DNA of 64,000 bases, taken from NCBI GenBank assembly GCA_964342185.1, contig CAYFER010000005.1:18316-82315 (forward strand), written 5' to 3'. Every line of letters starts with the position of its first letter. The stretch's first letter is position 1. Under the pieces are notes generated by a model. The model ran no database searches, was not told where the DNA came from, and saw nothing but the letters and a program-made list of their open reading frames with translations. This DNA comes from an uncultured Vicinamibacteraceae bacterium. Lineage in GTDB: Bacteria; Acidobacteriota; Vicinamibacteria; Vicinamibacterales; UBA8438. The position numbers were made by a program, and so were the translations under genes. Shown one piece after another: positions 1,241 through 55,387 of this stretch.

Positions 1241-1258
1241 ACTGTACCGAAGGAGAAA

Positions 1259-4645: not shown

Positions 4646-4654
4646 AGCACCTTT

Positions 4655-8075: not shown

Positions 8076-8198
8076 CTAACCAAACATCTCGCCTAGCGCC
8101 GGCAGTTGTAGTTCACTCACTCAAACTCCTCCTCCAGCCAACAACACCAAGTAGACTAGTAACAGCGATTAAGCCACCATTAATCTGTGATCGGTTGA

Positions 8199-8669: not shown

Positions 8670-8682
8670 AATTTGCCTCCTA

Positions 8683-9663: not shown

Positions 9664-9781
9664 AACTCACTCCGAGTGCGTAATGCAGGTTAAGGGTGCG
9701 GGGCCGATCTTAGTCCTCAAACAGGGTGATGTCGAAGACGAATGACCCTTCATACCGCTTGTTACGCTACCATACTGCCTT

Positions 9782-15492: not shown

Positions 15493-15515
15493 CTACTAGC
15501 CCATTCCGAAATGAA

Positions 15516-16271: not shown

Positions 16272-16394
16272 TCGTTATAAATATAAATGAGATCAGCGTG
16301 GAACAGTGGGGCGTGCGACATAACGGTCGAAAATAAGCGAAGCCGGTCACAGTTCCCAACACCGGTGGCACAATCACTCGCGGCTTCAAATTCT

Positions 16395-16958: not shown

Positions 16959-17020
16959 CTTGACTTATTCAGGAAATACTTCGCTTATGGTCAACCTCAA
17001 ACTCTCATTTCGGCATTCTT

Positions 17021-18235
17021 TCAAAACATGGGTTCTCCATTGACGATGACACAGTCAGGCAGGGTTTTCTGCAGCTCAGCGACCCCAGTAGGGGTGACTT
17101 GAGTGTTGCTGACATCCAACGCTTCTAAGAACCGTAATCCTTTAAGGTAGGTCAGACTCAAGTCGGTCACCTGGGTAGCGTGAAGTCCAAGACTCCTGAG
17201 GGTCTCGATCCGCGAGAGATCCTCCACGCCTGCATCAGTGACCGAGGTAACGGCAAGATTGAGCGTCTCAAGTATCGGCAACGCCGTCAGATGCGTAATA
17301 CCCGCATCGGTGACCTCAGTCCCGTAGAGATCCAACGTTTCCAATGCCGTTAATCCTCTTAGTTGTATCAAGCCCACATCAGTGACCAAGGTGCCCGCGA
17401 GACCAAGAAACTTTAGCTTTACCAACTCGCTGACATGCACTAAACCAGCGTCGGAAACCAAAGTGACCGCAAGATTGAGAGTCTCGAGGGCCCTTAGCTC
17501 TGACAAACTCGCTAGGCCAGTATCCGTCACCTGAGTACCGTAGAGATCCAAGAATTCTAGGGCCGTTAGTTGCTGGAAATGAATGAGACCGGCGTCCGTG
17601 ACTTGAGAACCAGCGAGGCCGAGTGTTTTTAGCGAAGTCAGACCCGCCAAATGGACCATACCCTCATCGGCAACCTCAGTACCGTAAAGGTCGAGAAACT
17701 CCAGCGTCTTCAACCCCACGAGATGGACTAAGCCGGCATCGGTAACCACTGTTCCAGCGAGACCGAGAAACTCGAGAGCCCTCAAACTTGCGAGGTGAGA
17801 CAAACCGTCGTTAGTAATTTGGGTCACTGCAAGGTTGAGAGTCTCAAGCGCAGGGAAACCCGACAAATTCGCCAGCCCGGCATTAGTAACCTGGGTTCCG
17901 GAAAGATTGAGAAAATGCAGAGCGGGCAAACCCGTCAGGCGCGCCACTCCAGCGTCGGTAATTTGGGTGTTATGAAGGTCAAGACCCGTCAATGAGGGTA
18001 AATTCGCAAAGTACTCAAGCTCGCCATCGGCAACCGAAGTGCCATTGAGGTCCACATATCCGACCGCTCCCGTCGCATCGTGGGTCAAACGACCACCGAG
18101 TGTCTGAACAATCATCTCCACAGTGACAACGGGTGATTCGATTGATTGCTGCTGTTGGGCTGTCAAAAACACATTGCCGCCCACAACATTCAACGCAACA
18201 AGCGCGGAAAAAACCCATTTACTTCTAATCATCAA
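17021..18235 (-). CDS. secreted leucine-rich-repeat (LRR) protein
   Basis: 404 aa. Signal peptide MMIRSKWVFSALVALNVVGGNVFLTAQ, then 13 consecutive 24-residue repeats of the form L..L..L.L.GT.VTDAGL.HL.G. Confidence 0.8.
   Translation of the reverse strand: MMIRSKWVFSALVALNVVGGNVFLTAQQQQSIESPVVTVEMIVQTLGGRLTHDATGAVGYVDLNGTSVADGELEYFANLPSLTGLDLHNTQITDAGVARLTGLPALHFLNLSGTQVTNAGLANLSGFPALETLNLAVTQITNDGLSHLASLRALEFLGLAGTVVTDAGLVHLVGLKTLEFLDLYGTEVADEGMVHLAGLTSLKTLGLAGSQVTDAGLIHFQQLTALEFLDLYGTQVTDTGLASLSELRALETLNLAVTLVSDAGLVHVSELVKLKFLGLAGTLVTDVGLIQLRGLTALETLDLYGTEVTDAGITHLTALPILETLNLAVTSVTDAGVEDLSRIETLRSLGLHATQVTDLSLTYLKGLRFLEALDVSNTQVTPTGVAELQKTLPDCVIVNGEPMF
17066..18001 (-). repeat. 13 tandem 72-nt (24-codon) LRR units with a 3-unit (216-nt) higher-order periodicity
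   Basis: Repeat types cycle LDLYGT / LNLAVT / LGLAGT in units 7-9 and 10-12 (and partly in 3-5). This is coding repeat DNA, not CRISPR: there are no spacers. Confidence 0.7.
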
Positions 18236-18533
18236 ACTGTTCTACCGGTGGAATCGATCGCCAAGAGTTTTAGCGTAGCACCACAACAACCGGTTCAACG
18301 GGCATTAGGATACGGGCTTCATTCCCAAGTGAACGATTAGCTCTCTGACTTACAGTTTATAGAAGGACGCAACCTGACGTGAGGCTGGACACTTCGTTGT
18401 GTCTCCTCGATGGACCAAATGCTATTCTAGCGCTCGAAGACGTGTCAGTTTGACGGGGAACGGTGAGGGCTGCATGCCCCAAAATGTCAGGCGCGACGGT
18501 GTGCAGGCTCGCAGGTTGCCAAGGAGGTGCCCC

Positions 18534-19547
18534 ATGGCAATTACATGTAGCGGAATTCAGCGCGTGTTAACAGCAGTTACCATCATGCTGTTCAGTGCTG
18601 CCTTAGTCGAAACCCAACAATCTACTCAGGACGCGCCGACGACACCAAGAACCCCGTGGGGAGACCCAGATCTTCAGGGAGTTTGGACGGGTTCCACCGT
18701 TACTCAGCTTGAACGGCCGAGAGAATACACAGCAAAGGTCTTTCTCACAGAAGAAGAAGCCGCGGCACTTGAGCGAGAGGCAATGGCACAGCAATTTGCT
18801 CCTCGACCCGTCGACCCGAACACGGGAACACCACTGACAGAGGGTGGTGTTGGCGACTACAACCCCGAGTGGTTTGATTCAGGGACAGCTGTCCTGCCAT
18901 CGCGGCGAACCTCCCTGATCGTGTCTCCGATTAATGGGCGCATTCCATACAAGCCAGAAACGTTGGAAACCGAACGACCGTACGGAATCGGCCCCTACAA
19001 CTCTTACCTCGATCTCGATACCGGAGAACGTTGTCTTGGGGACGGCGTGGTAGAGATGATTTGGCTCGGTTACAACCCGAACCACCAGATTGTGCAAACA
19101 GCTGACCATGTAGTGATTCTCCATGAGATGTGGCGTCAACGGCGCATTATTCCTCTAGACGACAGTCCACATATTGCACCTGGAATCCGACAGTGGAATG
19201 GAGACCTGCGAGGCCGTTGGGACGGAGACACCCTTGTCGTCGAATCAACGAATTTCGTCGACAGATGGCAAGACTATCGCTTTAACCCAAACCATCTCTG
19301 GCGAGCCCCATCTGCAACACTGCAGCTAATGGAATCCTTCAAGCGGCTCGATGCCACAACGATGTTGTACCGGGTGACCATCACCGATCCTGAACGATTC
19401 AGAAGACCTTGGACGATAGAGACATACCTAACAACTGACCAAGCGTCCCGGGGCGTTACGACAGGTCCGATCTATGAATACGCTTGCCACGAAGGAAACT
19501 ACGGCGCACCTAATATGCTTCGCGGTGCACGAGTCACAGACAAGTAA
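18534..19547 (+). CDS. secreted protein, unnamed paralogous family (copy 1): PRTPWGDPDLQGVW ... WNGDLRGRWDGDTLVVESTNF ... YEYACHEGNY
   Basis: The start is moved to ATG 18534, preceded by AAGGAGGT with a 5-nt spacer, which yields the signal peptide MAITCSGIQRVLTAVTIMLFSAALVETQQ. Motifs are shared with 19642-20592, 20751-22001, 35644-36675 and 40040-40978. Confidence 0.7.
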   Translation: MAITCSGIQRVLTAVTIMLFSAALVETQQSTQDAPTTPRTPWGDPDLQGVWTGSTVTQLERPREYTAKVFLTEEEAAALEREAMAQQFAPRPVDPNTGTPLTEGGVGDYNPEWFDSGTAVLPSRRTSLIVSPINGRIPYKPETLETERPYGIGPYNSYLDLDTGERCLGDGVVEMIWLGYNPNHQIVQTADHVVILHEMWRQRRIIPLDDSPHIAPGIRQWNGDLRGRWDGDTLVVESTNFVDRWQDYRFNPNHLWRAPSATLQLMESFKRLDATTMLYRVTITDPERFRRPWTIETYLTTDQASRGVTTGPIYEYACHEGNYGAPNMLRGARVTDK

Positions 19548-19641
19548 GGTTGACTCGTTTCGGGCCTTGCCGACCGTAGAGGTTAATGGAAAGAGTCGCT
19601 AAACCTCCTACACTCAGCAACCATCACTCTTACAACCAATT

Positions 19642-20592
19642 TCACCGCACATACAGTTGGTCAGGGGGCGGCACCTTACGGGTAATGTCGACTATCAAAG
19701 TTTCACCTTCCCAGCGTCTGACCAGCTGCTCCTTACGTAAATGTCCAAATTGTAATTCTTCGACAAACTCTTGGCAGCGGTACTCCAACAACTGGATATC
19801 CGGCTCCAGGCGACGGTACAGCGGCATCGATATCTTCCACGGACGGGTGAATACCTCAGGGTCATTTATGGTGACCTCATAGTGGATGGCATCAGGTGTG
19901 AGCGGAGTAAACTTCTCGACTAAATGCAATTGGTTGCTGTGGAAGTTACCCGCCCGATCAAACCAGGACTGGTCGTTGAAATCCGTCACTTCGACGACGA
20001 GCGTATCACCTTCCCATCGGCCAACAGAGTGCCCCATCCATTTGTAATCGGGAGGGCCTTCCACTTCGTCAAGATGAATAACGCGGGCGGCGTTTGAAAA
20101 GGTAAACGTCATATAAATCTTGTTAGTACTCTGAGTAATCTGAAACGGGTAGGGCATATACATAGCCCTGGGAACCCCTGGAAGGAAGCAGTCGATCTCG
20201 GGATCTCGGTCGAGCCAGTTCTCAGCATTCTCCTGCTTCTGGGCAGCAGCTTCTGGAGTGTAGGGAATCTGTCCGTCGCCGTCGACCACGCCCAGAGAAC
20301 CCGGCACCCCTCCCGCCGCACCAAATGGAAGCGAAGGTGCCGCCGGCACTTGGACGTACGGCAAATCGTAGGCTCCTTGCTGTACCACTGCACCGGCGCG
20401 CGCGGCATGGGCTTGAAGATCCCAATGAGCTTCGTTGTTGGCCTGCCAGATACCACTAAAATTTGGATGACCCTCGGCGGTGCGTGCGGCGCGAACGGTT
20501 TGCCCTGAAGGACTTATAACCGATGCGGAAATAATGGCACCCACTGCCGCCGCGGTAAATACGAGTATAGAAACGGATGTCCGGTTTCTCAT
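19642..20592 (-). CDS. secreted protein, same paralogous family (copy 2, divergent)
   Basis: 316 aa. Signal peptide, then RTAEGHPNFSGIWQ, DCFLPG, GHSVGRWEGDTLVVEVTDF, FTRPWK and LLEYRCQEF (in place of CHEGN). A second WEGETLIVD motif sits at the extreme C-terminus. Confidence 0.65.
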   Translation of the reverse strand: MRNRTSVSILVFTAAAVGAIISASVISPSGQTVRAARTAEGHPNFSGIWQANNEAHWDLQAHAARAGAVVQQGAYDLPYVQVPAAPSLPFGAAGGVPGSLGVVDGDGQIPYTPEAAAQKQENAENWLDRDPEIDCFLPGVPRAMYMPYPFQITQSTNKIYMTFTFSNAARVIHLDEVEGPPDYKWMGHSVGRWEGDTLVVEVTDFNDQSWFDRAGNFHSNQLHLVEKFTPLTPDAIHYEVTINDPEVFTRPWKISMPLYRRLEPDIQLLEYRCQEFVEELQFGHLRKEQLVRRWEGETLIVDITRKVPPPDQLYVR

Positions 20593-20750
20593 TTGATCGG
20601 TTTCCTTTCACGACCATGATTTCTATTTTCGCTGCCCAAAAGAGAGTCTTGAGGGCAAACATAACGCAGTCAAGTCCACGCCTCTATGGTCGTGGGACAA
20701 GGGCAGACAACCCTGTGGCAGCTATCCTGATTCTTTCTGCTTCCGTTTGA

Positions 20751-22001
20751 CTACCGCAAGGCCAGTGGATCGAGGCCCTCGGTGTTGAGTCCACATGTAC
20801 CAATGCACAGAGACGCAGGATGGCGACCGCTGCCCTGCTCGTAGGCTTGCTCGACTGCACGCGCCCCGGCCAACGCCCCTACCATGCCGAAATTGCCCTC
20901 ATGACAACGGGGTTCCGTATAGATGCGATTTGCCTCATTGCTCTGAAGTTTGAACTCTTGGATGACAGTCCACGGTCGGGTCCAGACTGTCGGATCCTCA
21001 AAAGTGGAAACAACCTCAAGCGTATCCGGACCGGTACGAGTCCAACGCTCGACAATATGCAGGTTCTCACGGGACCCCTGGAAATCCGTCTTTGGGGTAA
21101 AGTTAGTTACGTTGACGACCAGTGTCTCACCCTCCCATTGGCTGCGTGAATCTCCCCACCACTGACGGAGATTTGAAGGTAAATGCGGTGCCGTGGTAAC
21201 AGGGATGTTTCGCGAAAAACCTTGCCCTTGAGCGGCATCGTAGTACACCGTCACAACGCTTGGTGATTGCACAATCCGACGGTACACCCCCACAAAACCA
21301 CCACGAATGGAAGGCAGATTACCAGTCATACAGCGTTCACTTAAACCGCGGTCTTCTGGTCCGTCTGCCCGGTTGATGGGGCCAACACCCGCAGATGGGT
21401 ACTCAGGAGGGTCCTCCAAAAGCCGTGGCGACGGTGGCCCGTACTGTCCACCTTGGCAGGCAAATTCGTTGTCCCGGCAAACTTGAGTATTCTGCAAGAG
21501 AGCTAACTGGTACTGCCGGTACGCAGCCTGTCTCTCCAGCGCCTCCGGTGTGTAGGAAGGCATCTTGCCATCCGGAGGGTCGATAATCATCGCGGTGCGC
21601 TTCCCCGTGGGCCTTTGTGAGGTGTAGACCGCATTGTAGGCGCCGGTGACATCAGCCTCAGTTCCAGGCGCAGCCCGCACATGGTTACCAAAGACCGATT
21701 TGTCGGCTCGCGCGGTATCAAGCTCGGCAACTTGCTCGTCAGTGTAGAACTCCGTGGTGACTCCCGCGGGGCGTTCCAATGGAACGAGCAATTCAACACT
21801 CCAAATACCCTGGAGGTCTGGCTCACCCCATGGCGTCCTAGGCACGGAAGCTGTGGATGACGCCGGAGCGACGTTCTGCGCGGTAGCCGGACGAAGGCCA
21901 GCTACCCTGGTTTCTGCTCGGCCATCGACATTCACCATGGCCCCCAACCCAAGTGCGACCACGGACCCAATGCTGAGTCCTCGGACTAGTGAATAGCCCA
22001 C
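20751..22001 (-). CDS. secreted protein, same paralogous family (copy 3)
   Basis: 416 aa. GTG start preceded by AGGAGG with a 6-nt spacer. Contains VPRTPWGEPDLQGIWS, SERCMTGN, WWGDSRSQWEGETLVVNVTNF, WTRPWT and TEPRCHEGNFGMVGALAGARA. Confidence 0.7.
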   Translation of the reverse strand: MGYSLVRGLSIGSVVALGLGAMVNVDGRAETRVAGLRPATAQNVAPASSTASVPRTPWGEPDLQGIWSVELLVPLERPAGVTTEFYTDEQVAELDTARADKSVFGNHVRAAPGTEADVTGAYNAVYTSQRPTGKRTAMIIDPPDGKMPSYTPEALERQAAYRQYQLALLQNTQVCRDNEFACQGGQYGPPSPRLLEDPPEYPSAGVGPINRADGPEDRGLSERCMTGNLPSIRGGFVGVYRRIVQSPSVVTVYYDAAQGQGFSRNIPVTTAPHLPSNLRQWWGDSRSQWEGETLVVNVTNFTPKTDFQGSRENLHIVERWTRTGPDTLEVVSTFEDPTVWTRPWTVIQEFKLQSNEANRIYTEPRCHEGNFGMVGALAGARAVEQAYEQGSGRHPASLCIGTCGLNTEGLDPLALR

Positions 22002-22094
22002 ATGACACCTCCTACTAACGGCCGATGTTATACGGTTGCCGAACTAGAACACTCTAACCTCATTCAGCCTAACCTGGTAACTGAATGCAAAGAT

Positions 22095-35643: not shown

Positions 35644-36675
35644 CTACCGTGCCTCAGCGATCTGTTCATCAAGGCGTGCTCCACCCAAAATACCAGGCAT
35701 CGAATAATTCCCTTCGTGGCATGCATACTCAAAAATTGGATCTTCTGTGCTCTTTAAGACCAGCATCACAGTCCAAGGCTTAGTCCAAGTATCCGAATCA
35801 TCGAGCGTTATCTCATGCTGGATGGTATCGGGTGCCACGCGGGTAAAACGCTCAACGAGACGCAATCCCGCAGAAGCACCACTATAGCGTGTCTCACCCG
35901 AATAATTTGTCGTCTCAACAACCAGAGTGTCGCCGTCCCAATGGCCACGCGAATCACCTGTCCACAATCGCACGCCATCATCAACATGGGGGCGCCCATC
36001 AAGCGGAATGACACGGGAGATGTGCCCCATCTCCTGAAGGATAGCTACGTGGTCTGGTGTTTGAAGAATCTGAAAGTAGCTGTTGTAACCAGCGCTCAAA
36101 CGGGGCGCCTCAAAGTGGAGACACCGGTCGCCAAGACTTCTATCTTCAGGCCCATCCGAGGGATGCTCCCGGGAATATTCACGCCTAGAGGAAGCGAGTG
36201 CTTCGGCGGCAGTGGTTAATGCCGGAATTCGACCATCCGGTGGATCGACAATGAGAGACGTGCGGTTATCAAGGTTGCGTTCGACTAGCCAGAAAGCGTT
36301 GTAGTTTCCGGTGACGACATCGAAATCGTTATACTCTGAATTGCCCAGCGCCTGCTGAATAAGACGGTCTCCCAACAAATCTCCAGCTTGTTCGTTGTTG
36401 CGAAATTCATTCACCTTCTGGGTCAATTCAGCAAGTTCTTCGTCTGACAACACCGTCTTACCCGCCAGTTGCTCTGGACGCTGCAGAGGCGTTGCACTGT
36501 TGTTAGCCCAGATACCCTGAAGGTCAGGCTGTCCATCCGCTGTGCGGGGGACCGCCCAATCGCTTTCCTGTCCCAACGCCGAGAACGGCACCGTCGCACC
36601 AATCACAAGTATCATCAGCAAAACTGCTATGCGTCGATCTATCATTACACTCCTCCTGCATGCCGGATAAGACAT
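35644..36675 (-). CDS. secreted protein, same paralogous family (copy 4)
   Basis: 343 aa. Signal peptide, then VPRTADGQPDLQGIWANNSATPLQRP, GDRCLHF, WTGDSRGHWDGDTLVVETTNY, WTKPWT and FEYACHEGNYSMPGILGGARL. Confidence 0.7.
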   Translation of the reverse strand: MSYPACRRSVMIDRRIAVLLMILVIGATVPFSALGQESDWAVPRTADGQPDLQGIWANNSATPLQRPEQLAGKTVLSDEELAELTQKVNEFRNNEQAGDLLGDRLIQQALGNSEYNDFDVVTGNYNAFWLVERNLDNRTSLIVDPPDGRIPALTTAAEALASSRREYSREHPSDGPEDRSLGDRCLHFEAPRLSAGYNSYFQILQTPDHVAILQEMGHISRVIPLDGRPHVDDGVRLWTGDSRGHWDGDTLVVETTNYSGETRYSGASAGLRLVERFTRVAPDTIQHEITLDDSDTWTKPWTVMLVLKSTEDPIFEYACHEGNYSMPGILGGARLDEQIAEAR

Positions 36676-36703
36676 ACATATGCCTCTCTGGCTAGTTCAA
36701 CAA

Positions 36704-40039: not shown

Positions 40040-40978
40040 ATGCGCACTCGCGTGGCCGGGCTGCTTGTCGTTTTGACCCTCGTCGTTTTACTGGTGCCAT
40101 CGCCAACCGTTGCTCAGTCCGCCAACGCACCACGGACCCCTTGGGGAGACCCTGATCTCGAAGGGATCTGGTCGTATGCGAGCTTGACACCCCTTCAAAG
40201 ACCAGCTGACTTGAGCAATCGTGAATTCTTCACGCCTGAGGAGGCTGCAAGTCGCAACGCCGCGACAAGCGTAGATCGACCTCCCCAACCCGGCAGTGTT
40301 GGAAACTACAATGCATTATGGTTCGATCGTGGGACAATCGACCCCAGTCTGCGAACGTCGCTTATTATCGACCCCCCGAACGGTCGACTACCTCTGACCC
40401 AGGAAACACAAGCACGGATCGCTTCCGAGCGGGAATACCGAGATAGTCATCCAGCCGATTCGTGGCTGGACCGCAGCCCGTGGGATCGATGCATCACGTA
40501 TCACGGTGTACCTCCGGTCTCAACCGGCTACAACAATACCTATCACATCGTGCAGTCACCCGGATACGTTGCCATTTTGGTGGAGAACATTCACGATGTT
40601 CGGATCATTCCTCTTGACGGACAACCACAGCTGGAGTCTTCAATTCGACAGTGGAACGGTGATTCCCGAGGTCATTGGGAAGGTGACACACTGGTTGTTA
40701 AAACCACAAACTATAGTACTCAAACGCGCCTGCGTTTTCCGTCGTCACCAGAGACAACTGCGGTGGAACGTTTCACGCGAATCAATGCCGATCTAATCGA
40801 CTATCAATTTACGGTGGAAGATCCGTCAGTCTATACAAGCGCATGGACTGCTGTTCGACCGATGCCGAGAATCCCAGACTATCGGATTTACGAGTACTCG
40901 TGTCACGAAGGCAACTACGCAATGTCAAACATTCTGAGCGGTGAACGACAACGTGAAAAAGCGACAGCGAGAGACTAA
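40040..40978 (+). CDS. secreted protein, same paralogous family (copy 5)
   Basis: 312 aa. GGAGG with a 7-nt spacer before the ATG. Signal peptide, then APRTPWGDPDLEGIWSYASLTPLQRP, WDRCITY, WNGDSRGHWEGDTLVVKTTNY and YEYSCHEGNYAMSNILSGER. Confidence 0.7.
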   Translation: MRTRVAGLLVVLTLVVLLVPSPTVAQSANAPRTPWGDPDLEGIWSYASLTPLQRPADLSNREFFTPEEAASRNAATSVDRPPQPGSVGNYNALWFDRGTIDPSLRTSLIIDPPNGRLPLTQETQARIASEREYRDSHPADSWLDRSPWDRCITYHGVPPVSTGYNNTYHIVQSPGYVAILVENIHDVRIIPLDGQPQLESSIRQWNGDSRGHWEGDTLVVKTTNYSTQTRLRFPSSPETTAVERFTRINADLIDYQFTVEDPSVYTSAWTAVRPMPRIPDYRIYEYSCHEGNYAMSNILSGERQREKATARD

Positions 40979-45518: not shown

Positions 45519-47168
45519 CTAAGGAAGTTCTTCCTGCGTCCACGGGATACGGCAGGGTTCACCACGTTCATACCGAGCGAGGTTCACTTCGAGTCTCGCA
45601 GTTACTTCCACAAGACCAGCTTGTTGGGCAGCAATCAATAGATCGCGTTGCACGGCTGCAGCCTGAGCGTATTCACCAAGTTCGGCCAACATCATCGCGG
45701 TCGTTTCGCCAAGTTCAATGGTCTGTTGCTGCTCAAGAAGTCGTTCAATCAACTGTTGCGCCAAACTAGCGTCTCGCACCTGGTCATCCGGAGCCGCTGA
45801 CAACAAGCGCGCTAACGCATGCGTAAACAATGGATGATCAGGATACCGTTCGCTATCGGCGGACAGTCTGGTTCGCGCGTCGGCGTAACGCTCTAATCGC
45901 ACGAGGGTCATTGCGTAGCCAAACGCTGCGTCCTGATGTGCCGGATCCATTTCAAGCACGCGTTCGTATTCCGCCAGCGCCTCACGGGGTTGCCCACTGC
46001 GCCCCAGGACACCGGCAAGTTGCGTCCGTGCTTGAATGTTGACCGGATCGTGCTCCAACGCTATTGAAAAATTGTCAATGGCCTCTTGATGCCGACCCGC
46101 TGCCGCGCGAAGTATGCCCAGGCTGTAGCGCGCGGCAACATAGCCAGAATCCGCACGAATCGCCGCTTCGAATGCGGCTTCCGCGCCAGCCTCGTCTGCC
46201 AGTTGATAAAGTGCAGTCCCGAGGCGGTGATGCAATGACGGATCCGTCGGCGCGAGTTCCAATCCTCTACGAAACCAAGTGGCGGCATCAGCCCAGTTGC
46301 CAACGTCCATGGCTTGCCCCCCCCTGACGTTGTAGGCTTCGGCACTTTCAAGCAATGAACCAACTTCTTGCATCAGTGGATCTCTGGGACTGACTTCCAC
46401 GTCTCCCCGCTGGTCAAGATGTCTCTCCGCGCGGTCGAGGTCTCCCAAGTTCCGATAAGCCATGGCCAGCGGAACATGGATGGTCGACGCCTGGGGCCGA
46501 AATGCGAGCGCCGCCTCAAAGTCCTGAACTGCTTGGGTAGAATCACCGTTCGCTAGCGCCACACGACCTGCTCCAAACCTAGCCGCGGCTGACGTCGGTC
46601 GTATGGCCAATGCTTGACTGAATAACGGTTCAGCAGCTTCAACCAGGCCCTGATCAAGATAAATGTCACCGAGCCAAACGAGTGTTGCCACATCGTTCGG
46701 TGCAAGTTCTAGCGCACGCTCAAAGGCAGTCGCAGCGGCGTCGATGGGACCAGTGTTCCGATAGACATGACCCAGATAATAGGGCCATCGTCGGTCATCA
46801 GGAAGAAGTGTCTGGGCATTGCCGTAGCATGTCCCGGCAGCCTCAAAAAAGGACGCTGCCAGCAACAGGTTGCCCATATCCCCGTAGGCACCCCCGAGAG
46901 CTGCAGCACTTTGACTCCCATCTTCAATGGCAGACCTCACTAGAGCAAGTTGGACGTGCATCTGCTCGCGAACCGATTCAGCCATGACAGAAAAGTCCGG
47001 CAGTACAACGGGTTGCAGATTCCGACCCGTTGGAGGTTCAACTCTTGAAGTATCACCGGGCACCGCCAAAACATTCTGCTCCGCCGGGTCCGGGTCAGAA
47101 CCGGCACACCCGCTACTCAGCAAAGCGCAGGCCACCCAACTAGTTTGGCACCAGATTCGGATTCGCAT
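45519..47168 (-). CDS. TPR-repeat protein, secreted or possible lipoprotein
   Basis: 549 aa. N-terminus WVACALLSSGCAG, then more than 10 TPR-like units (A...Y..AL...P....A...LG..Y...G). Confidence 0.75.
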   Translation of the reverse strand: MRIRIWCQTSWVACALLSSGCAGSDPDPAEQNVLAVPGDTSRVEPPTGRNLQPVVLPDFSVMAESVREQMHVQLALVRSAIEDGSQSAAALGGAYGDMGNLLLAASFFEAAGTCYGNAQTLLPDDRRWPYYLGHVYRNTGPIDAAATAFERALELAPNDVATLVWLGDIYLDQGLVEAAEPLFSQALAIRPTSAAARFGAGRVALANGDSTQAVQDFEAALAFRPQASTIHVPLAMAYRNLGDLDRAERHLDQRGDVEVSPRDPLMQEVGSLLESAEAYNVRGGQAMDVGNWADAATWFRRGLELAPTDPSLHHRLGTALYQLADEAGAEAAFEAAIRADSGYVAARYSLGILRAAAGRHQEAIDNFSIALEHDPVNIQARTQLAGVLGRSGQPREALAEYERVLEMDPAHQDAAFGYAMTLVRLERYADARTRLSADSERYPDHPLFTHALARLLSAAPDDQVRDASLAQQLIERLLEQQQTIELGETTAMMLAELGEYAQAAAVQRDLLIAAQQAGLVEVTARLEVNLARYERGEPCRIPWTQEELP

Positions 47169-47386
47169 ACGACACCAAAAAGACTTCTCGTCGATGCTAA
47201 CACGGTCTGATGTCTCTCTGTGTAATGCAAAGCGATCAGACAGATACTTCCTTTACAGGCGACTCACTGGTGCGATACCTGTTTTTTGGGGAATACGACG
47301 ATCCAAGTCAGGACACTATCGGGCGCGACCGAATTCGAGAGAAAAGGAAGCGCGATTCAAGGATTCTGTTGCGCTGCCACCAATCC

Positions 47387-49198
47387 TCATTGTTCCAGTC
47401 CCTGCCCTTCGGTGAGCGTCACGTAACGGTCAATCTCAACATCAGGCCACAGTTCTACTCGGCCACTCGGCCAAAACACCTGAACTGCCGGAAGTTCAGA
47501 CGACTGACCCAACCCAACCAACACCCTGGAATCGCTTGCCGAGGCGTAACTGCCATCGGACCGTACTCGCCGCCAGACCGGCGACTCTGTTGATCGAATC
47601 ACCTCAACTCGTGCACCTATGGCATATCGCGAAACTTCTTGGCGGAGGTCTAATCCGAGCCAGTGCGCACGCTGACCAACTTCATTTATGAACAGTCGAA
47701 CGGGACCACTATTGTTACTCACAACAATGTCAGTATCACCATCATTGTCGAGGTCGCCTACTGCCGCGCCGCGACTAACTTCAGACAGACTAAAGGCCGC
47801 ACCAGTCTGATTCGTCACGTCGTCGAACCGGCCGTTTCGAAGGTTTAGGAAAAGCGAGTTTTGCTCGTCGTAAGGAAAAGCTTCGCCCACACGCCCCTCA
47901 ATTGCCTCTATGGCACCGTTCACAGCTACAAGGTCAAGCCACCCGTCGTTATCGACATCTAGCCACGCCGTACCAAAACCAGTCCGCCCGAGGCTCAAAG
48001 GCCCAAGGCCCACTCGGCCACTCACGTCTGCGAATACACCTGACCCGTTATTGAGATACAAGTTATTGCCCTCAGCCGGTAAGTGGGTCATAAACAGGTC
48101 TGGATCGCCATCATTGTCGAAATCAGCAGCATCCACACCCATGCTGCCCTCTGCAGTGCCGTCACCACTTAGCGCAACACCCGAGAGCAAACCCAAGTGC
48201 GACAACGTGCCATCACCTTGATTCATCCAGAGAAGATTGTCACCACCATCATTCGCCACATAAATATCAACCCACCCGTCGGAATCAAAATCCGCCGTCG
48301 ATACCCCTAACGCCGGGCCATGATCAGTCCCAAACAAAGCCACAGACGTAACATCAACGAACTGACCGTTTCTCTGGTTTTGATACAAACGATCCGCTTG
48401 TGGTGTGTAGAGATCGGGCGTGCAGTAGTCACGACGACCGGTCAAACCAGTACAGGGTTGGTCTGCTTCAATTTGGTATTGCAGATAATTACCAACATAT
48501 AGATCCAACCAACCGTCACGGTCGTAATCAACAAACGACGCCGAAACAGCCCAACCAGGATCGTTAGTGCCACTTTCGGCTGAAATATCAATAAACGTAC
48601 CGTCACAGTTATTCCGTAGTAACTGGTTCGGTCCAAAATTCGTCAAGTAGATATCTATACAACCATCATTGTCGACATCACCGGCAGCGACCCCCATTCC
48701 GTACTCAAACGTTTCAATTCCACTCTCCTCAGTAACGTCAGTAAACCGGAGTGAAGCTGGGTCACCAGTCGTCGGGTCTAAGTCGTTGCGAAACAATCGC
48801 CCGCCAAGTTCAAAAGCAGAATCCAGCTCAACGAGTGACCGGTCCAAGCCAACCTGGTCCCCAAGCATACGTCCCTGAACCAAATACACATCGAGGTCAC
48901 CATCATTGTCGTAGTCAAGCACCCCGACACCGCCAGGAATCATCTCTGGAAAAAAGAACTCACCAGACATGCCGTTGAGGTGGGTAAACCGTAAGCCAGT
49001 TGCCTCGGCCTTTTCCGTAAACCAGCCGGGTGTGTCGTCCCCAGGAGGAACATCAGTAAGAACCGGACCACCGGTGATCGCCGACTCGCCAGACAACTCT
49101 TGAACAGACTCCCCTGCACACCCCAGACAGGACATGGCTATAGCCAGTGTGTTTGAACATAGACGCATAACTGTCTGGTTACTCATACGACCATACAT
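47387..49198 (-). CDS. CRTAC1-family protein (FG-GAP/VCBS repeats plus ASPIC/UnbV C-terminal domain)
   Basis: 603 aa. Repeated GV.A.D.DNDG..D.Y..N motifs (at least 6) and a C-terminal ...GARVEV...........R.V.S..GY.S.SD..V.VGLG, typical of ASPIC/UnbV. Confidence 0.8.
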   Translation of the reverse strand: MYGRMSNQTVMRLCSNTLAIAMSCLGCAGESVQELSGESAITGGPVLTDVPPGDDTPGWFTEKAEATGLRFTHLNGMSGEFFFPEMIPGGVGVLDYDNDGDLDVYLVQGRMLGDQVGLDRSLVELDSAFELGGRLFRNDLDPTTGDPASLRFTDVTEESGIETFEYGMGVAAGDVDNDGCIDIYLTNFGPNQLLRNNCDGTFIDISAESGTNDPGWAVSASFVDYDRDGWLDLYVGNYLQYQIEADQPCTGLTGRRDYCTPDLYTPQADRLYQNQRNGQFVDVTSVALFGTDHGPALGVSTADFDSDGWVDIYVANDGGDNLLWMNQGDGTLSHLGLLSGVALSGDGTAEGSMGVDAADFDNDGDPDLFMTHLPAEGNNLYLNNGSGVFADVSGRVGLGPLSLGRTGFGTAWLDVDNDGWLDLVAVNGAIEAIEGRVGEAFPYDEQNSLFLNLRNGRFDDVTNQTGAAFSLSEVSRGAAVGDLDNDGDTDIVVSNNSGPVRLFINEVGQRAHWLGLDLRQEVSRYAIGARVEVIRSTESPVWRRVRSDGSYASASDSRVLVGLGQSSELPAVQVFWPSGRVELWPDVEIDRYVTLTEGQGLEQ

Positions 49199-49265: not shown

Positions 49266-51278
49266 ATGCACCGAACGGGGATTGGCTCGAGGATTCTCGC
49301 TGGAGGCTTGCACCGAATTCGGTTTCATTGCAACATCATGGCCTATGCTAGTGTTGGTGACACTTCCTTAACGGCCAGAGGGAAAACCGTGGCAAAGCAA
49401 TTAGACCGAGCAGTTGCCTCCAGAAAACCGTTGGCGACAACCGCCGGCATTCTCGCCATCTGTCTGTGGGCTAATTGGGGTCTTGCTCAAGACCTATCGT
49501 CAGGCACAGTCACCTACGCCGGACAAATTGCCTCGATTCTGAACACCCACTGCGTGGTTTGTCACCGACCCAGCGCCATCGCTCCGTTCAGCCTCACAAC
49601 GTTCGACGCCGTTAAAGATCGCGCCGAGCAGATTGCCCAAGTTGTAGAGAGTGGCAACATGCCCCCGTGGAAACCTGAATCAGTCGGTGAACGCTTCCGA
49701 GGAGAACGCCGCCTACAAGAAAACGACGTTGAACTGATTCGCCGGTGGGTTGATGCTGGTGCGCCGGAAGGTAACCGACAGATAACTCCAGCATCACCGA
49801 TGTGGCCTGAAGGGTGGCACTCGGGAATCCCCGACCTCGTTGTAACGATGCCAGCGTCGTATACTCTGGCGCCAGACAGTGAGATCTATCGAAACTTTGT
49901 GATTCCGATTCCAGTTGAAGAACGACGTTTCGTTGCCGCAATCGAACTAAAACCTTCTACAACCCAAGGAATCCATCACGCCCGATTAATGATCGACTCA
50001 ACCGGCAGCGCGCGACGGCAAGACAATGCCGACGACTTAGTCGGATATGACGAACCGTCCACCGACGGCACAGAGTTCCCAGACGGCCACTTTCTAGGTT
50101 GGGCGCCAGGCACACTAGCGGGCAATGCTCCAGAGGAGTTGGCCTGGCTACTCGAGCCCGGCACCGACTTAGTAGTTAAGACACACCTTGTGTCGCGTAA
50201 CACACCGGTAAACCTCCAACTGTCTGTCGGTCTCTTCTTCACTGACAAACCACCAACCGTCACGCCCGCCATCGTCCAACTTGGATCACAAACAATTGAT
50301 GTTCCAGCTGGAGACCCCACTCACGTGGTCGAAGACACCTATCAATTACCTGTTGACGTCGACTTGCTTGCTATTTACCCGCACGCTCATTTTCTAGCCA
50401 AGCAAATCCGAGCATCAGCACGATTACCCAATGGCACTGTTCTCCAACTAATTCGAATCGACGACTGGGATTTTAATTGGCAAGACGAATACCGATACAC
50501 CGAAAACATCCGCTTACCAGCAGGAACGACGATTCGTATGCGATATGTTTTTGACAACTCCACGAACAATCGCAGAAACCCGCACAATCCTCCAAAACGC
50601 GTGCGTTTTGGTCCCCGGTCTACTGACGAAATGGCCGAACTGACATTACAGGTAGTTCCGGTGAGGTCTACGGACCGAACCATGCTGGTCCAAGACGTCT
50701 GGCGAAAGGTCTCTGAGATCATACTAGCGGGAGCACAAAAGAAGCTGACTGATAATCCCAGCAGCGAAAACCACGAAAGCTTCGCAACTAGTCTCGCAGC
50801 GGTGGGACGAATCGACGACGCGGTCAGACATCTGGAAGAAGCTGCTCGCCTGGATCCGGCTAGACCGACCGTATATTACCGATTGGGAACTGCTTTAGCG
50901 CTGCAAGACAAACAAAATGAAGCGATGTACTACTACCAACGCGCCCTCAACCTAGACCCAAATTTCGTTGAGGCCAACAACAATTTAGGCAGCCTGTTTC
51001 ACTTAGCTGGAAACCTTGATGAAGCCAGCCGATATTATCGCCGCACTCTCGATCTAGACCCTGACCACAGTGGTGCCCATTTCAATCTAGGAAATATCTT
51101 CTTAGCTCGTCGACAATTTTCGGATGCCGAGTTGGAATTCAGAAAAACTCTCGAGCTAAGGCCAGACTTTGGCGACGCGTTCGAGGGTCTTGGTCAGGCT
51201 CTAGCCGAACAGGGAAAACAGACGGAAGCGCAGGAAGCCCTCAATCGAGCACGAGAACTCGAATTGAAAAACCGCTAA
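49266..51278 (+). CDS. tripartite secreted/anchored protein: c-type haem domain (CxxCH), a PHM/DBH-like type II copper monooxygenase domain, and C-terminal TPR repeats
   Basis: 670 aa. Hydrophobic anchor PLATTAGILAICLWANWGLA; HCVVCHRP...GNMPPW (planctomycete-type cytochrome c motif). Copper ligand pattern GIHHARL ... VVKTHLV ... IYPHAHFLAK ... STDEMAEL, collinear with peptidylglycine alpha-hydroxylating monooxygenase. Four or more TPRs at the C-terminus. Confidence 0.7.
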   Translation: MHRTGIGSRILAGGLHRIRFHCNIMAYASVGDTSLTARGKTVAKQLDRAVASRKPLATTAGILAICLWANWGLAQDLSSGTVTYAGQIASILNTHCVVCHRPSAIAPFSLTTFDAVKDRAEQIAQVVESGNMPPWKPESVGERFRGERRLQENDVELIRRWVDAGAPEGNRQITPASPMWPEGWHSGIPDLVVTMPASYTLAPDSEIYRNFVIPIPVEERRFVAAIELKPSTTQGIHHARLMIDSTGSARRQDNADDLVGYDEPSTDGTEFPDGHFLGWAPGTLAGNAPEELAWLLEPGTDLVVKTHLVSRNTPVNLQLSVGLFFTDKPPTVTPAIVQLGSQTIDVPAGDPTHVVEDTYQLPVDVDLLAIYPHAHFLAKQIRASARLPNGTVLQLIRIDDWDFNWQDEYRYTENIRLPAGTTIRMRYVFDNSTNNRRNPHNPPKRVRFGPRSTDEMAELTLQVVPVRSTDRTMLVQDVWRKVSEIILAGAQKKLTDNPSSENHESFATSLAAVGRIDDAVRHLEEAARLDPARPTVYYRLGTALALQDKQNEAMYYYQRALNLDPNFVEANNNLGSLFHLAGNLDEASRYYRRTLDLDPDHSGAHFNLGNIFLARRQFSDAELEFRKTLELRPDFGDAFEGLGQALAEQGKQTEAQEALNRARELELKNR

Positions 51279-51290: not shown

Positions 51291-51998
51291 CTAAAACACT
51301 TGAAACAAAATTGGCCACCACGGCTGAGCCCGAAGGTAGGGCAGTAACACGCCGAGTAAGGGAAGCCATACCCATCTCGATGCACGTGCACACTCAAGTC
51401 TAAGGCGATGAATGTCTATCGTAAGGTTAGCAGGCGTCTCAAAACGCTGGGCCGACGGCCAATAGCGGGGCACGGTATCGAGATAGACTTGGTATTCGTC
51501 TCCATGCCTTACCCTGAGAAATTCTTCTTCTGCGGGCACAGTGGTGAGCATGTAAATGAACGTCACAATCAGTACAGCCATGACGCACAGCAAGCTCTGC
51601 AAAAACAGAGCTGCAGCCAACGCTAACAAAAAAGATCCTAAGTAAAGCGGGTTGCGGCAGATGGAGTAGGGGCCATCCGTGACCAGAATCTTTTCTTTCC
51701 TACCGCCGATATACAGAGTTGCCCAGAACCGAAATATAGTACCGGCAACAAACGTCACCCACGCCATTACCTCAATTACTCCAGCAAGCCATGACCCTTC
51801 TGATACAAAGGGCGTTGAGAATAGCATCACTACCAAGGACGGTAGCAACACCAAGGCTGCGACGATACCGCGCCATCTAAACCGCCGCTGATTTGACACC
51901 GTATCCGTGGTCAGCGGAGGTGCGATGTGTCCAAAATCATGAGTTTGAGAAATGTTTGACGAAGACAACACTCTAGAATCCACAAAAATGGCCTTCAC
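51291..51998 (-). CDS. isoprenylcysteine carboxyl methyltransferase (ICMT)/phospholipid methyltransferase-like membrane methyltransferase
   Basis: 235 aa, 4-5 TM. Contains ...LVTDGPYSICRNPLYLGSFLLALA... and ...AEEEFL...G..Y..Y, typical of the ICMT/PEMT superfamily. Confidence 0.65.
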   Translation of the reverse strand: MKAIFVDSRVLSSSNISQTHDFGHIAPPLTTDTVSNQRRFRWRGIVAALVLLPSLVVMLFSTPFVSEGSWLAGVIEVMAWVTFVAGTIFRFWATLYIGGRKEKILVTDGPYSICRNPLYLGSFLLALAAALFLQSLLCVMAVLIVTFIYMLTTVPAEEEFLRVRHGDEYQVYLDTVPRYWPSAQRFETPANLTIDIHRLRLECARASRWVWLPLLGVLLPYLRAQPWWPILFQVF

Positions 51999-52278
51999 TA
52001 AAACGTTTATTCCCGCGGTATTTATCTACTACCCCTGTCCTAGGCCAGTCGACGACAGCACCACTTTTCCTCGTACTCTCAACACTTGATTCTAGCCGAG
52101 ATTGCCGAGTGCCTGTAGTTTTTCTCACGAATGAAGGTGTTATCAATAACTCAGTCTATGGAGCTAAATCAGCCTAATCAAGTCAAATTAGACATTTAGA
52201 AGGAGTAGACTGATGGCCATAGATATTCTCCAAATGGTTCGAGTCAGACGGTTGAAAGAAAAACACAGGAGGCACCAT

Positions 52279-53199
52279 ATGAAACGGCGCATCGTTCTTG
52301 CCTTGTTACTAGGTGTGGGCACACTGTGCCTGTCGGTCGTCGGAGCACAAGAATCGGCCAAAGTCATCGAAGTTGAACAACTGAGAGAGAACTTGTTCGT
52401 GTTCAGAGGAGAGGGCGGTGGGGGAAACGTTGCCGTTTTCGTCACAACAGGCGGGGTAGTCGTTGTCGATTCAAAAAATCCTGGCTGGGGCCAACCCATT
52501 CTTGACGAAATCAAAACATTGACGCCCAACCCAGTCACGACCGTCATCAATACCCACAGTCACGCTGATCACGTCAGTGGGAACGCTGCGTTTTCAAACA
52601 CGGTCGAATTTGTAGCGCATGAAGTCACAAAAGCCAATATGGAAGCAATGAGACCGTATACGGGTCGCACTGAACCACCCGTGAATGTGTTTGAAGAGAC
52701 GAACGACCAAGGACTTCCTACTCGAACTTTCACCGATCGAATGTCACTCGGTGCCGGTCGCGACCAAATTGACTTATATTACTTTGGACGTGCCCACACA
52801 GGGGGTGATACCTGGGTGGTCTTTCCGGCCCTCCGGACGCTGCATGCCGGCGACGCCTTCTTGGGTAAACGCGTACCGTTTCTCGATGCGGCTAACGGTG
52901 GCAGCGGAGTGGATATCCCTGACACGCTACAAAAAGCGCACGACACAATCGAAAACGTCGACACCATCATCACCGGCCACAGCACCCAAGCGACGTGGGA
53001 AGATCTTAACGAGTGGGCGGCTTTTAATCGCGACTTCTTAGAAATGGTACGGGTAGGGCGAACTACGGGAAAGACAGTCGATGAAATCGCTAGTAGTTGG
53101 GTCAAGCCAAGTCGGTACGCCGACTACGACTCTTCAAATGCGGGCAGCATCAGACGAAACATTCAAGTTATTGTTGAAGAACTTGAGCGACTAAATTAA
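52279..53199 (+). CDS. secreted MBL-fold metallo-hydrolase (copy B)
   Basis: The start is moved to ATG 52279, with AGGAGG 6 nt upstream. Signal peptide MKRRIVLALLLGVGTLCLSVVGAQE, then INTHSHADHVSGN, GRAHTGGDTWVVFP and TIITGHST. Confidence 0.8.
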   Translation: MKRRIVLALLLGVGTLCLSVVGAQESAKVIEVEQLRENLFVFRGEGGGGNVAVFVTTGGVVVVDSKNPGWGQPILDEIKTLTPNPVTTVINTHSHADHVSGNAAFSNTVEFVAHEVTKANMEAMRPYTGRTEPPVNVFEETNDQGLPTRTFTDRMSLGAGRDQIDLYYFGRAHTGGDTWVVFPALRTLHAGDAFLGKRVPFLDAANGGSGVDIPDTLQKAHDTIENVDTIITGHSTQATWEDLNEWAAFNRDFLEMVRVGRTTGKTVDEIASSWVKPSRYADYDSSNAGSIRRNIQVIVEELERLN

Positions 53200-53369: not shown

Positions 53370-54500
53370 TCATCGGTCAACAAATGGCGGGCCGATTATG
53401 AGCGCCGGGTCCGCACCCATCTTGGGCACGAATTTTTGTGTGCGGCCATGCTGGTTGTCCCCACCATATAAGTTCCCCTCAGAATCTACCGATATGGTGT
53501 GCACCTCTAAGTATCCAGTCGGCCCTTCGGTCGACACATTCCAGGTGTACAAACGATTTCCTGAAAAATCAAGTTTTACTAACTTGAGGGGACCCAGATC
53601 AGACACCCAAACATGCTCGTCGTTCACAATGATGTCAAGCGGAAGACCAAATCCAGACCAAACATCAATATGATCGATTTCCGGGTGGTACTCTCCGGAT
53701 GCTTCACTCATCAGTCTGAACACTTGAACACGACCATTTGCCCGATCCAAAGCAAAAATTAGGCCGTCAGGACCGATGGCTAACGCATGTATGCCATTAA
53801 ACTGCCCTGGTCCTTCTCCGAATTCACCGAATTCTGACAGATAGTTACCTTGACCATCCAAAATCACCACACGGTGATTATCAAGACCATCCGCGACCAA
53901 CACTCTACCGTCAGGCAGAAACGCCACGTCCTGCGGACGACCAAAATGAGTCTGGTCACTGCCACCTACATTTTTCTCACCTAACGTCATGAGCAGCTGA
54001 CTGCCGTCATTAGAGAACACAAAAATTTGATGCCTTGTTTCATTGACAACCCATACTCGCCGGTCTGGATCGTAGGGACTAATTCGAACCCTGTGAGGAC
54101 CGGGTCCCCCCTCCCCGCTGTCACACAAGTGGTCCCACTGATCCCACACCTCAAGCACATTGCCATCTCCGTCAACCACCATCAGGCAGTTCTGCCATGT
54201 TCGAAATTCAGTATCACTCAACACGTTAATACCAATCGACCCCGCATATCCGGCAAACTCGGGTGGAATTGGGTTCGGCAGTCTTGTCTCTCCGCGTTGT
54301 GAGATAAATATCCGGTCGGGAGACTCCGCAAACACACCAGAATTTCCGCCAAATGCAAAACCCTCTTCGGCAAAGGGCTTGTGCCAATCGGCGACGACAT
54401 CATACGGACTCGGCCCGATTGGTCCCAAGTCTTGACTTGAAAGCCAGTCGATCGACAAAACTATGAACGCTAGAATGGTTAAAACTTGTAAATTTCGCAT
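53370..54500 (-). CDS. secreted NHL-repeat six-bladed beta-propeller, peptidyl-alpha-hydroxyglycine alpha-amidating lyase (PAL)-like
   Basis: 376 aa with a signal peptide. GPHRVRISPYDPDRRVWVVNETRHQIFVF and GGSDQTHFGRPQDVAFLPDGRVLVADGLDNHRVVILDGQGNYLSEFGE...FNGIHALAIGPDGLIFALDRANGRVQVF closely parallel the PAL segments as I recall them: PHGLSID...WVTDVALHQVFK, GSDQNHFCQPTDVAV...VSDGYCNSRIVQF and FSVPHSLAL...VADRENGRIQCF. Confidence 0.7.
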   Translation of the reverse strand: MRNLQVLTILAFIVLSIDWLSSQDLGPIGPSPYDVVADWHKPFAEEGFAFGGNSGVFAESPDRIFISQRGETRLPNPIPPEFAGYAGSIGINVLSDTEFRTWQNCLMVVDGDGNVLEVWDQWDHLCDSGEGGPGPHRVRISPYDPDRRVWVVNETRHQIFVFSNDGSQLLMTLGEKNVGGSDQTHFGRPQDVAFLPDGRVLVADGLDNHRVVILDGQGNYLSEFGEFGEGPGQFNGIHALAIGPDGLIFALDRANGRVQVFRLMSEASGEYHPEIDHIDVWSGFGLPLDIIVNDEHVWVSDLGPLKLVKLDFSGNRLYTWNVSTEGPTGYLEVHTISVDSEGNLYGGDNQHGRTQKFVPKMGADPALIIGPPFVDR

Positions 54501-54623
54501 ACGGACACAATCTTACAATGGCGGAGCGACAACTCAGTAGTGGACCGGAGGCTGATTTATTCTTATTTTCATGAAAGTGTACGGCAGAGGATAGTGTGTC
54601 CTCCGTAACGACCTAGACACCGT

Positions 54624-55387
54624 GTGGGACACAACACCACTTTCAACCTCTTTGTTTGGATGGGTGGCAGGATGCTTTTGAAGAGCCTTACGTTTTGCCG
54701 GATAACACGGCGACTTGGAATGGTCGTGGCATTGCTCGCGATTGTGATGACGCCGCCGGGATTGGTAGCACAGGGGTCATATAGGTCGGGCCAGCCGGTT
54801 TATACCGCGTACTAAGGATGGGAAATAGACGAAGATGGTTCCCGTTACTTCGTATTCGGCTATATGAACGAAAATTGGGAGGAAGAAACTAATGTCCCGG
54901 TCGGCCCAGATAATTTCGTAATGGCCGTCCAAGCCGGTCAAGAGGTTGGCACGTTCGACCAGGAGACGGCTGACCAAGGACAGCCGACCCGGTTCCTGCC
55001 GAGACTCAATCGATTCGTGTTTCGAGTTCCAGTACCGGAGGGTTATGGACTCGACGATGAGATGGCCTGGAGTCTGACAACCCGCTCTGGCGAAGACCAT
55101 CGCAAACAACACCTGGTAGCGCCCGGGGGTTGAGATTCTCTTGGTATGTCTACCGCGGGGCAGGGAAAGTGACGTTCGATCCACTCCAGACCAAAGTCTG
55201 GGAGGACAGTCGAGCACACGCCAATTCGCCGTGGGCCAATTTCTGGGAAACGCCCCCGTTGCTAGAGGACGACACATGGCGGGTAAACGCTATCTTTCAC
55301 GAGCCCGGAACCTACGTCCTACGGGCCCTCGCGTCCGACAGCGCTTTGAACGTCGACTCGGTTATTGTAGTCACCGTCACTCCTTGA
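54624..55387 (+). pseudogene. disrupted gene for a secreted hypothetical protein (in-frame TAA at 54813-54815 plus a frameshift near 55120-55135)
   Basis: Track ORFs 54624..54815 and 54864..55133 share one frame and read ...GQPVYTAY-TAA-GWEIDEDGSRYFVFGYMNENWEEE.... The third piece (55130..55387, ...RFSWYVYRGAGKVTFDP...) continues in another frame after a CCCGGGGG run. Confidence 0.5.

Follow-up and report, generated by a model that had tools for sequence, protein, structure and literature searches.

The window analysed here, a stretch of 64,000 nucleotides from the genome of an uncultured Vicinamibacteraceae bacterium (contig CAYFER010000005.1), carries a gene for an exported beta-propeller of NHL repeats, termed the NHL gene below (Table 1). 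By sequence comparison and by its predicted structure, the encoded protein is a true homologue of PAL, the peptidyl-alpha-hydroxyglycine alpha-amidating lyase domain of the animal enzyme PAM, and not just a generic NHL propeller. It belongs to a bacterial Leu/Glu clade, a variant within the PAL family that is so far uncharacterised; prokaryotic PAL activity as such is already known. We put forward, as a reading whose chances we judge to be about even, that the protein, exported and stand-alone, is a zinc enzyme belonging to the PAL superfamily in which the catalytic base has moved from a tyrosine on blade 3 to a glutamate on blade 6, and which would hold a carboxylate-bearing substrate through Arg253 and Arg69.

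The 376-residue protein begins with a hydrophobic, signal-like stretch (MRNLQVLTILAFIVLSIDWLSSQD) that is variable among 32 homologues and is followed by a conserved mature start, GP(V/I)GPSPY. The AlphaFold model (mean predicted local distance difference test score, pLDDT, 83.9; predicted template modelling score, pTM, 0.84) has a low-confidence helix at the N-terminus. Pfam NHL (PF01436) matches the protein with a score of 59.2 bits (E 2.5e-16), the curated cut-off being 20. Thus the NHL blades described in a first-pass annotation, made from the sequence without database searches, are borne out, and the signal peptide described there is likewise predicted. Purifying selection on the gene is strong: the ratio of nonsynonymous to synonymous substitution rates is 0.08–0.09 relative to loci L001 and L002, which come from metagenome-assembled genomes of uncultured marine Vicinamibacteraceae and encode proteins of 94–95% amino acid identity. 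A protein identical to that of the window is present in Tara data. Public records name the protein only as ‘hypothetical protein’ or, doubtfully, ‘YncE’, and a promoter and terminator scan gave no signal above chance. The sole NCBIfam match is to the ScyF model (NF035926); at 61.6 bits, well under the equivalog cut-off of 350, membership of that family is ruled out.

Both structure and sequence comparisons point to PAL as the closest known relative. The reference was the PAL part of rat PAM (residues 498–820), identical to PDB entry 3fvz over 323 residues. First, rat PAL 3fvz is the top PDB match of the AlphaFold model in Foldseek (E 1.2e-18, 24% identity over 358 columns), and the NHL domain of Thin ranks after it at 18% identity; the margin in favour of PAL is modest but consistent. 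Second, a single-sequence search aligned PAL once, to residues 143–348 of the query (E 3e-18). Third, a profile that included distant relatives matched PAL in the PDB over profile positions 136–349 (118 bits, E 3.6e-33), and the same profile compared with PAL alone aligned in one stretch of ~215 residues (E 2e-38). The three segments that the first-pass annotation had likened to animal PAL, residues 134–162, 179–226 and 234–261, align to the rat protein as stated there. As to a grouping with generic NHL propellers, the outcome which that annotation had held against its own proposal, PAL is the top structure and, in the PDB sequence search, scores highest for any single stretch and is alone in aligning over nearly the full length.

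Active-site equivalences were taken from the profile alignment and from a multiple alignment (MAFFT), and the codons were checked (Table 1). Tyr654 and Met784 of rat PAL we take to be the catalytic base and a residue of the active-site pocket, respectively, and Arg706 presumably binds the substrate carboxylate. Rat PAL and the bacterial ExiPAL both bind zinc through three histidines, use a tyrosine and an arginine in catalysis, and hold calcium with two backbone atoms and an aspartate; Arg706 is listed as a catalytic residue (PMC10900485). By alignment, the zinc-ligand histidines, placed on blades 2, 4 and 6, are retained in the window protein, as the first-pass annotation had proposed, and its observation that the ‘DGY’ of PAL reads DGL here holds across the clade. 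The aspartates D204 and D252 are likewise invariant, in ~112 clade sequences from three phyla. Glu332 and His334 lie two residues apart on the same strand, so both are expected to point their side chains into one cavity. The comparison with the PAL catalytic core that the annotation had proposed as a check thus recovers the fold, the zinc histidine triad and the arginines (Arg69 weakly), and fails for Tyr654 and for the calcium ligand Asp787.

Relatives of the protein are numerous. A protein search returned more than 3000, of which the top 120 clusters are ~375 residues long and 68–100% identical, and when one genome per species was scanned, relatives turned up in 484 stretches, which places the tightly conserved clade in at least 484 species genomes. 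The best 80 of these 484 share 63–95% identity with the window protein and come from Vicinamibacterales (Acidobacteriota), Longimicrobiales (Gemmatimonadota), Pseudohongiellaceae and other Gammaproteobacteria, and one member of the Acidimicrobiales; orthologues from Acidobacteriota, Gemmatimonadota and Gammaproteobacteria are 63–82% identical. From the alignments and loci of this analysis, 240 family sequences were typed by their active-site residues. The Leu type, to which the window protein belongs (n = 114), has Leu at position 206 and, in 112 of the 112 sequences that cover the site, Glu at 332 and His at 334. The Tyr type (n = 107) has Tyr at 206, Gly, Asn or other residues at 332, and His at 334. 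In the His type (n = 15), His sits at the Tyr654 position, Gly or His is found at 332, and Glu replaces the third zinc histidine. All three types keep H136, H238, D204, R210, D252, R253 and R257. Since Leu206 and Glu332 occur together in all 112 sequences that cover both sites, among them L136, which the Tyr-type family scan recovered, and the other types differ at both positions, the alignments identify a coupled exchange and not drift.

Among bacterial PAL homologues, at least three widespread clades of paralogues can thus be told apart by the residues around a conserved His/Arg core. Relatives at 35–45% identity carry the PAL tyrosine motif, DGYxNxR, and weak Pfam matches to the SGL/lactonase family are seen for the Tyr-type paralogue. 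A second PAL-like paralogue is present in 13 of the 80 Leu-type loci. Genes of the His type directly adjoin the Leu-type gene in six loci (L026, L057, L062, L066, L070 and L078), often in divergent orientation. One divergent Leu-type sequence, P0123 (56% identity), carries Glu where the first zinc histidine would be (GPGPERIRV). For the PAL mechanism, the coupled exchange of Tyr for Leu and Met for Glu in the clade of the window protein serves as a mutagenesis experiment done by nature and indicates which specific mutants to make.

The first-pass annotation had also reported a PHM-like gene nearby, PHM being the peptidylglycine alpha-hydroxylating monooxygenase domain of PAM, and the neighbouring product does have this fold. 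Its AlphaFold model (pLDDT 85.6) retrieves PHM structures at Foldseek ranks 1–27 (best E 3.5e-15), followed by DBH. Across 27 homologues there is no variation in C36xxC39H40, H177, H178, H247 or H313xH315, and at least 90% keep M396; the spacing of this HH...H...HxH...M pattern matches what we take to be the CuH (HH...H) and CuM (HxH...M) copper sites of PHM. The label ‘PHM-like’ is thus justified on the modelled structure. Pfam reports TPR repeats and a weak cytochrome c in this protein, with Cu2_monoox_C below the cut-off (E 0.057), and a PDB sequence search gave no match to it. The family is very large, with 5747 matches, and is annotated only as TPR or cytochrome c; such families are probably multi-copy, two of the listed members lying on contigs of identical length, probably one and the same contig. 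The analysis documents, in Acidobacteriota and Gemmatimonadota, large and so far unannotated families of copper proteins in which haem c is fused to a PHM fold. The annotated ATG of the window gene probably lies ~25–40 codons upstream of the real start, because the homologues are 616–650 residues long versus 670 here. Pairs of FG-GAP/ASPIC-UnbV and TPR proteins adjoin the gene (window positions 45519–49198).

A second PHM-like gene once lay much closer. In L001 and L002, this gene (PHM-like #2; L001 8254–9783) and a gene called c8 (7234–8253) are divergent from the NHL gene at a distance of 218 bp. The c8 product is a secreted protein of ~300–345 residues and the usual downstream partner of the PHM-like gene: the order PHM-like then c8 holds in eight of eight independent loci and in all seven Leu-anchored loci with a PHM-like gene. 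Further examples of the module are found in L052 (14658–17420) and in L161–L171, besides that of L001 (7234–9783); L164 carries a run of additional c8 paralogues, and repeated FG-GAP/TPR pairs flank PHM-like #2 there too (1–7824). In the window, blastn comparison with L001 reveals that stretches equivalent to 8261–9961 and 7549–7819 are missing. PHM-like #2 is gone entirely, as the PHM-like hidden Markov model (HMM) matches L001 and L002 at this place and has no match there in the window. The c8 remnant covers HMM profile positions 2–51, 53–130 and 215–304, its nonsense codon falls at the position of a family Glu, and the small open reading frames (ORFs) at 54864–55133 and 55130–55387 are c8 fragments. 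The NHL gene has been kept intact while the adjoining PHM-like/c8 module decayed.

Linkage between PAL-like and PHM-like genes was measured from three directions. In the window itself, the four genes between 49266 and 54500 alternate strands (+ - + -) and are therefore separate transcription units and not a single operon. First, 80 loci from different species genomes (1.43 Mb) were anchored on Leu-type NHL genes with a 10-kb reach; ORF calling at these loci was crude and yielded antisense artefacts too. Within this distance, seven of the 80 contain a PHM-like gene (L001, L002, L026, L027, L036, L050 and L052). The set of 80 shows no conserved neighbour: the commonest family, PQQ-dehydrogenase-like genes, occurs in only 17. 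Second, among 80 metagenome loci anchored on Tyr-type genes, 58 of them with at least 2 kb of flank, a single one has a PHM-like gene nearby. Third, eight independent loci anchored on PHM-like #2 orthologues have c8 directly downstream in every case and a PAL-like gene in none. L170 has the same GH3-MoaB-MoeA order as the window and contains PHM-like #2 and c8, and the NHL gene is absent within 8 kb. Since the PHM-like family is large and probably multi-copy, chance proximity to the NHL gene is plausible.

The split PHM and PAL amidation pathway that the first-pass annotation had proposed is thus poorly supported. It would have the NHL protein work as a PAL, freeing glyoxylate from peptidyl-alpha-hydroxyglycine made by the PHM-like oxygenase, in a split amidation or a related oxidative tailoring reaction, which we consider distinctly unlikely. 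PAL is the closest structure, the zinc triad and the arginines are kept, and the neighbour has the PHM fold and its copper-ligand pattern; the divergent pair in L001 and L002 also fits, as does L052, the clearest PAL/PHM operon among the loci examined. There, a Tyr-type PAL-like gene (17417–18592) overlaps a PHM-like gene (15606–17420) by 4 bp within a cluster of four genes on the same (minus) strand, c2, Tyr-type PAL-like, PHM-like and c8 (14658–19736). In addition, five of the seven PHM-like/c8 modules near Leu-type genes abut a PAL-like paralogue, of the Leu type in L001 and L002, the His type in L026 and L027, and the Tyr type in L052. These adjacencies are a weak lead only for the pathway idea, because the loci were chosen for the NHL gene and the reciprocal test found none in eight. 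Against a working amidation pair stand the loss of Tyr654 throughout the clade, the unconserved synteny in all three directions, the alternating strands and the size and probable copy number of the PHM-like families. Moreover, the abutting PHM-like gene has been deleted and c8 is a pseudogene, with the NHL gene still under purifying selection. Peptidyl-alpha-hydroxyglycine decays spontaneously at alkaline pH, and a lyase would presumably be less needed in a periplasm exposed to seawater. A PHM/PAL pathway should not be read from proximity alone.

A broader version of the idea, which we hold to be very improbable, is that some bacteria run a split periplasmic pathway of PHM and PAL type, with the L052 cluster as its intact form, the Leu/Glu clade as a derived lyase whose base has changed from Tyr to Glu, and the window locus as a partly decayed example. 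Under that scheme, the haem-c-fused PHM-fold oxygenase would draw electrons from the respiratory chain instead of from ascorbate and would hydroxylate a glycine-like C-terminus, and the PAL-family propeller would then free the product.

Under the reading of a stand-alone enzyme with a relocated base, periplasmic or secreted, zinc on the three histidines would still polarise an oxygen of a substrate that bears a carboxylate and is bound by Arg253 and Arg69. Glu332, on the same strand face as His334, may take over as general base, or may serve as a fourth ligand together with a zinc-bound water. The reaction would be a PAL-like C–N cleavage or a hydrolysis, on a substrate differing from that of the Tyr-type bacterial PALs. 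Nor would the protein depend on the PHM-like gene that lies 2 kb from its own, given the low linkage in all three tests, the loss of the adjoining module in the window and the occurrence of that module without the NHL gene in L170.

Several observations weigh against this relocated-base reading. The loss of Tyr654 in the clade could mean that catalysis has been lost. Thr335 occupies the position of the calcium ligand Asp787 and is Thr, Ala or Ser within the clade; the calcium-site Asp is also absent from the Tyr-type bacterial relatives. The equivalence of Arg69 with Arg533 comes from a weak alignment, and the placement of Glu332 near the histidine triad is predicted from strand geometry and the PAL literature. 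The adjacencies in five of the seven modules could reflect a loose functional tie to PHM-like genes. A separate caveat concerns kinship with PAL: when HMMER scores against the PDB are summed, the TRIM-NHL domains (Thin, TRIM71) rank above PAL. These matches consist of one query blade (~residues 180–262) aligned in turn to six blades; because one blade matching all six inflates the TRIM-NHL scores, the summed ranking was rejected as an argument against PAL kinship.

Some of the same observations would fit a non-catalytic NHL propeller with a ligand-binding, scaffold or cell-surface role, descended from PAL, that lost catalysis together with the tyrosine and in which any metal is structural only. 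The top summed scores go to the non-enzymatic TRIM-NHL domains, the catalytic tyrosine and the calcium-site aspartate are lost, and no operon context suggests a pathway. We nevertheless think this quite improbable: the His triad, both arginines, D204, D252 and Glu332 are invariant in ~112 sequences from three phyla, the change from Tyr to Leu is offset by an acidic residue gained next to the metal site, and the TRIM scores are inflated as described.

An alternative that overlaps with the relocated-base reading is that the protein uses zinc to hydrolyse or cleave, as a lyase, some small non-peptide metabolite, for instance a lactone, an ester or an alpha-hydroxy acid of the N-acyl or ureido kind, and is one of three paralogous periplasmic propellers that scavenge organic matter. 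Genes of the three types (Tyr, Leu/Glu and His/Glu) are often next to one another, with the second paralogue described above in some loci, and the weak SGL/lactonase matches of the Tyr-type paralogue point in the same direction. Frequent neighbours of Leu-type genes include the PQQ-dehydrogenase-like family, relatives of the metallo-beta-lactamase-fold protein (9 of the 80 loci) and aldehyde dehydrogenase. However, no neighbour is consistent enough to indicate a substrate, and the retained arginines would suit a peptide C-terminus equally, so we regard this specific assignment as unlikely.

Among the other genes of the window, two lie between the PHM-like and NHL genes (Table 1). Members of c2, an unannotated secreted family of ~300–400 residues, occur near PAL-like genes in 13 of 80 and 10 of 80 loci. 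With five copies in the window alone, the family is merely abundant, and c2 was rejected as a partner of the NHL gene. Searches of Pfam, NCBIfam and PDB sequences gave no usable match for the PHM-like, c8 or c2 proteins, and it took structure prediction to resolve the PHM-like one.

Table 1. Features of the window and His-type genes of related loci, with coordinates (window positions unless a locus is named).
Feature	Coordinates	Strand	Description or basis
NHL gene, PAL homologue of the Leu/Glu clade	53370..54500	-	Intact ORF, 376 aa; exported six-bladed NHL beta-propeller
Predicted signal peptide, ~residues 1-23	54432..54500	-	Suggested by the hydrophobic N-terminus; cleavage site approximate
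Arg69 codon, probable equivalent of PAL Arg533	54294..54296	-	Weak local alignment and MAFFT column; invariant in clade
His136 codon, PAL zinc ligand His585	54093..54095	-	Profile alignment; 114/114 clade sequences
Leu206 codon, at PAL catalytic base Tyr654	53883..53885	-	DGLDNHR vs PAL DGYCNSR; Leu in 114/114 clade sequences
His238 codon, PAL zinc ligand His690	53787..53789	-	Profile alignment; invariant in clade
Arg253 codon, PAL Arg706	53742..53744	-	Profile and multiple alignment; invariant in clade
Glu332 codon, at PAL Met784	53505..53507	-	Two residues ahead of the third zinc His; candidate replacement base or fourth zinc ligand
His334 codon, PAL zinc ligand His786	53499..53501	-	Profile alignment; His in 112/112 clade sequences covering the site
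PHM-like gene	49266..51278	+	Haem c (CxxCH), PHM/DBH-fold copper monooxygenase-like domain and TPR repeats; ~2 kb from the NHL gene
Deletion scar	54539..54666	.	~1.7 kb of L001/L002 missing, coding for the second PHM-like gene (blastn)
c8 pseudogene remnant	54609..55384	+	Three fragments in two frames, nonsense codon, ~270 bp internal deletion
ICMT/PEMT-type membrane methyltransferase	51291-51998		Between the PHM-like and NHL genes
Exported metallo-beta-lactamase-fold protein	52213-53199		Between the PHM-like and NHL genes; weakly similar to SoxH-related ‘quinoprotein relay’ hydrolases
c2 paralogue	18378-19544	+	One of five in the window
c2 paralogue	19645-20607	-	One of five in the window
c2 paralogue	20754-22043	-	One of five in the window
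c2 paralogue	35647-36696	-	One of five in the window
c2 paralogue	40040-40975	+	One of five in the window
His-type PAL-like gene, L026	8138-9994
His-type PAL-like gene, L057	8623-9870
His-type PAL-like gene, L062	1-1005
His-type PAL-like gene, L066	87-1163
His-type PAL-like gene, L070	1430-2521
His-type PAL-like gene, L078	8728-9849

Comparison with known systems places the window protein among several kinds of NHL propeller. ScyF, of scytonemin biosynthesis, is also a periplasmic NHL propeller, and the window protein falls below its membership score. TRIM-NHL proteins (Drosophila Thin, TRIM71/LIN-41, TRIM2/3 and Brat), whose NHL domains bind RNA or protein, share the NHL motif xADxxNHRVQVF and the six-bladed fold. 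They differ in that only query residues ~126–303 match, repeatedly and on different blades, and in their lower structural rank and identity.

The rat PAL core (PDB 3fvz/3fw0) shares with the window protein the six-bladed NHL propeller, the motifs SDQxHFxxPxDVA and ADRxNGRxQxF, the zinc ligands (H585/H690/H786 corresponding to H136/H238/H334) and the arginines (R706 to R253 and, by weak alignment, R533 to R69). The two proteins, ~24% identical, differ by the replacement of Tyr654 with Leu206, Met784 with Glu332 and Asp787 with Thr335. The region of blades 1 and 2 is ~28 residues longer in the window protein, where V56 and H136 are 80 residues apart versus 65 for V520 and H585 in PAL. Rat PAL is a domain of PAM, whereas the window protein is stand-alone, exported and bacterial.

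To our knowledge, descriptions of PAL deal almost entirely with an enzyme domain of animals and algae, and we know of bacterial PALs mainly from one patent and from protein-engineering work. Prokaryotic PALs of the Tyr type, such as ExiPAL of Exiguobacterium, are active as lyases in vitro (US patent 9,096,843 B2, cited in PMC10900485), and their natural role is unexplained (PMC10900485). ExiPAL, compared here through its published residues (PMC10900485), is likewise a stand-alone bacterial PAL homologue, with its zinc histidines H95/H210/H309 and Arg225 spaced as in the window protein. However, it has Tyr178 and the calcium-site Asp310 where the window clade has Leu and Thr, and the clade adds a Glu two residues ahead of the third histidine. 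Closer to the window protein are the Tyr-type PAL-like proteins of Acidobacteriota and other phyla in the present dataset (such as P0149, P0181 and the product of L052 17417–18592), which share full-length similarity at the identity level given above, a signal peptide, the propeller, the His triad and the arginines. Unlike the window protein, they keep DGYxNxR and have Gly or Asn at the position of Glu332, and one of them is encoded in an operon with a PHM-like gene.

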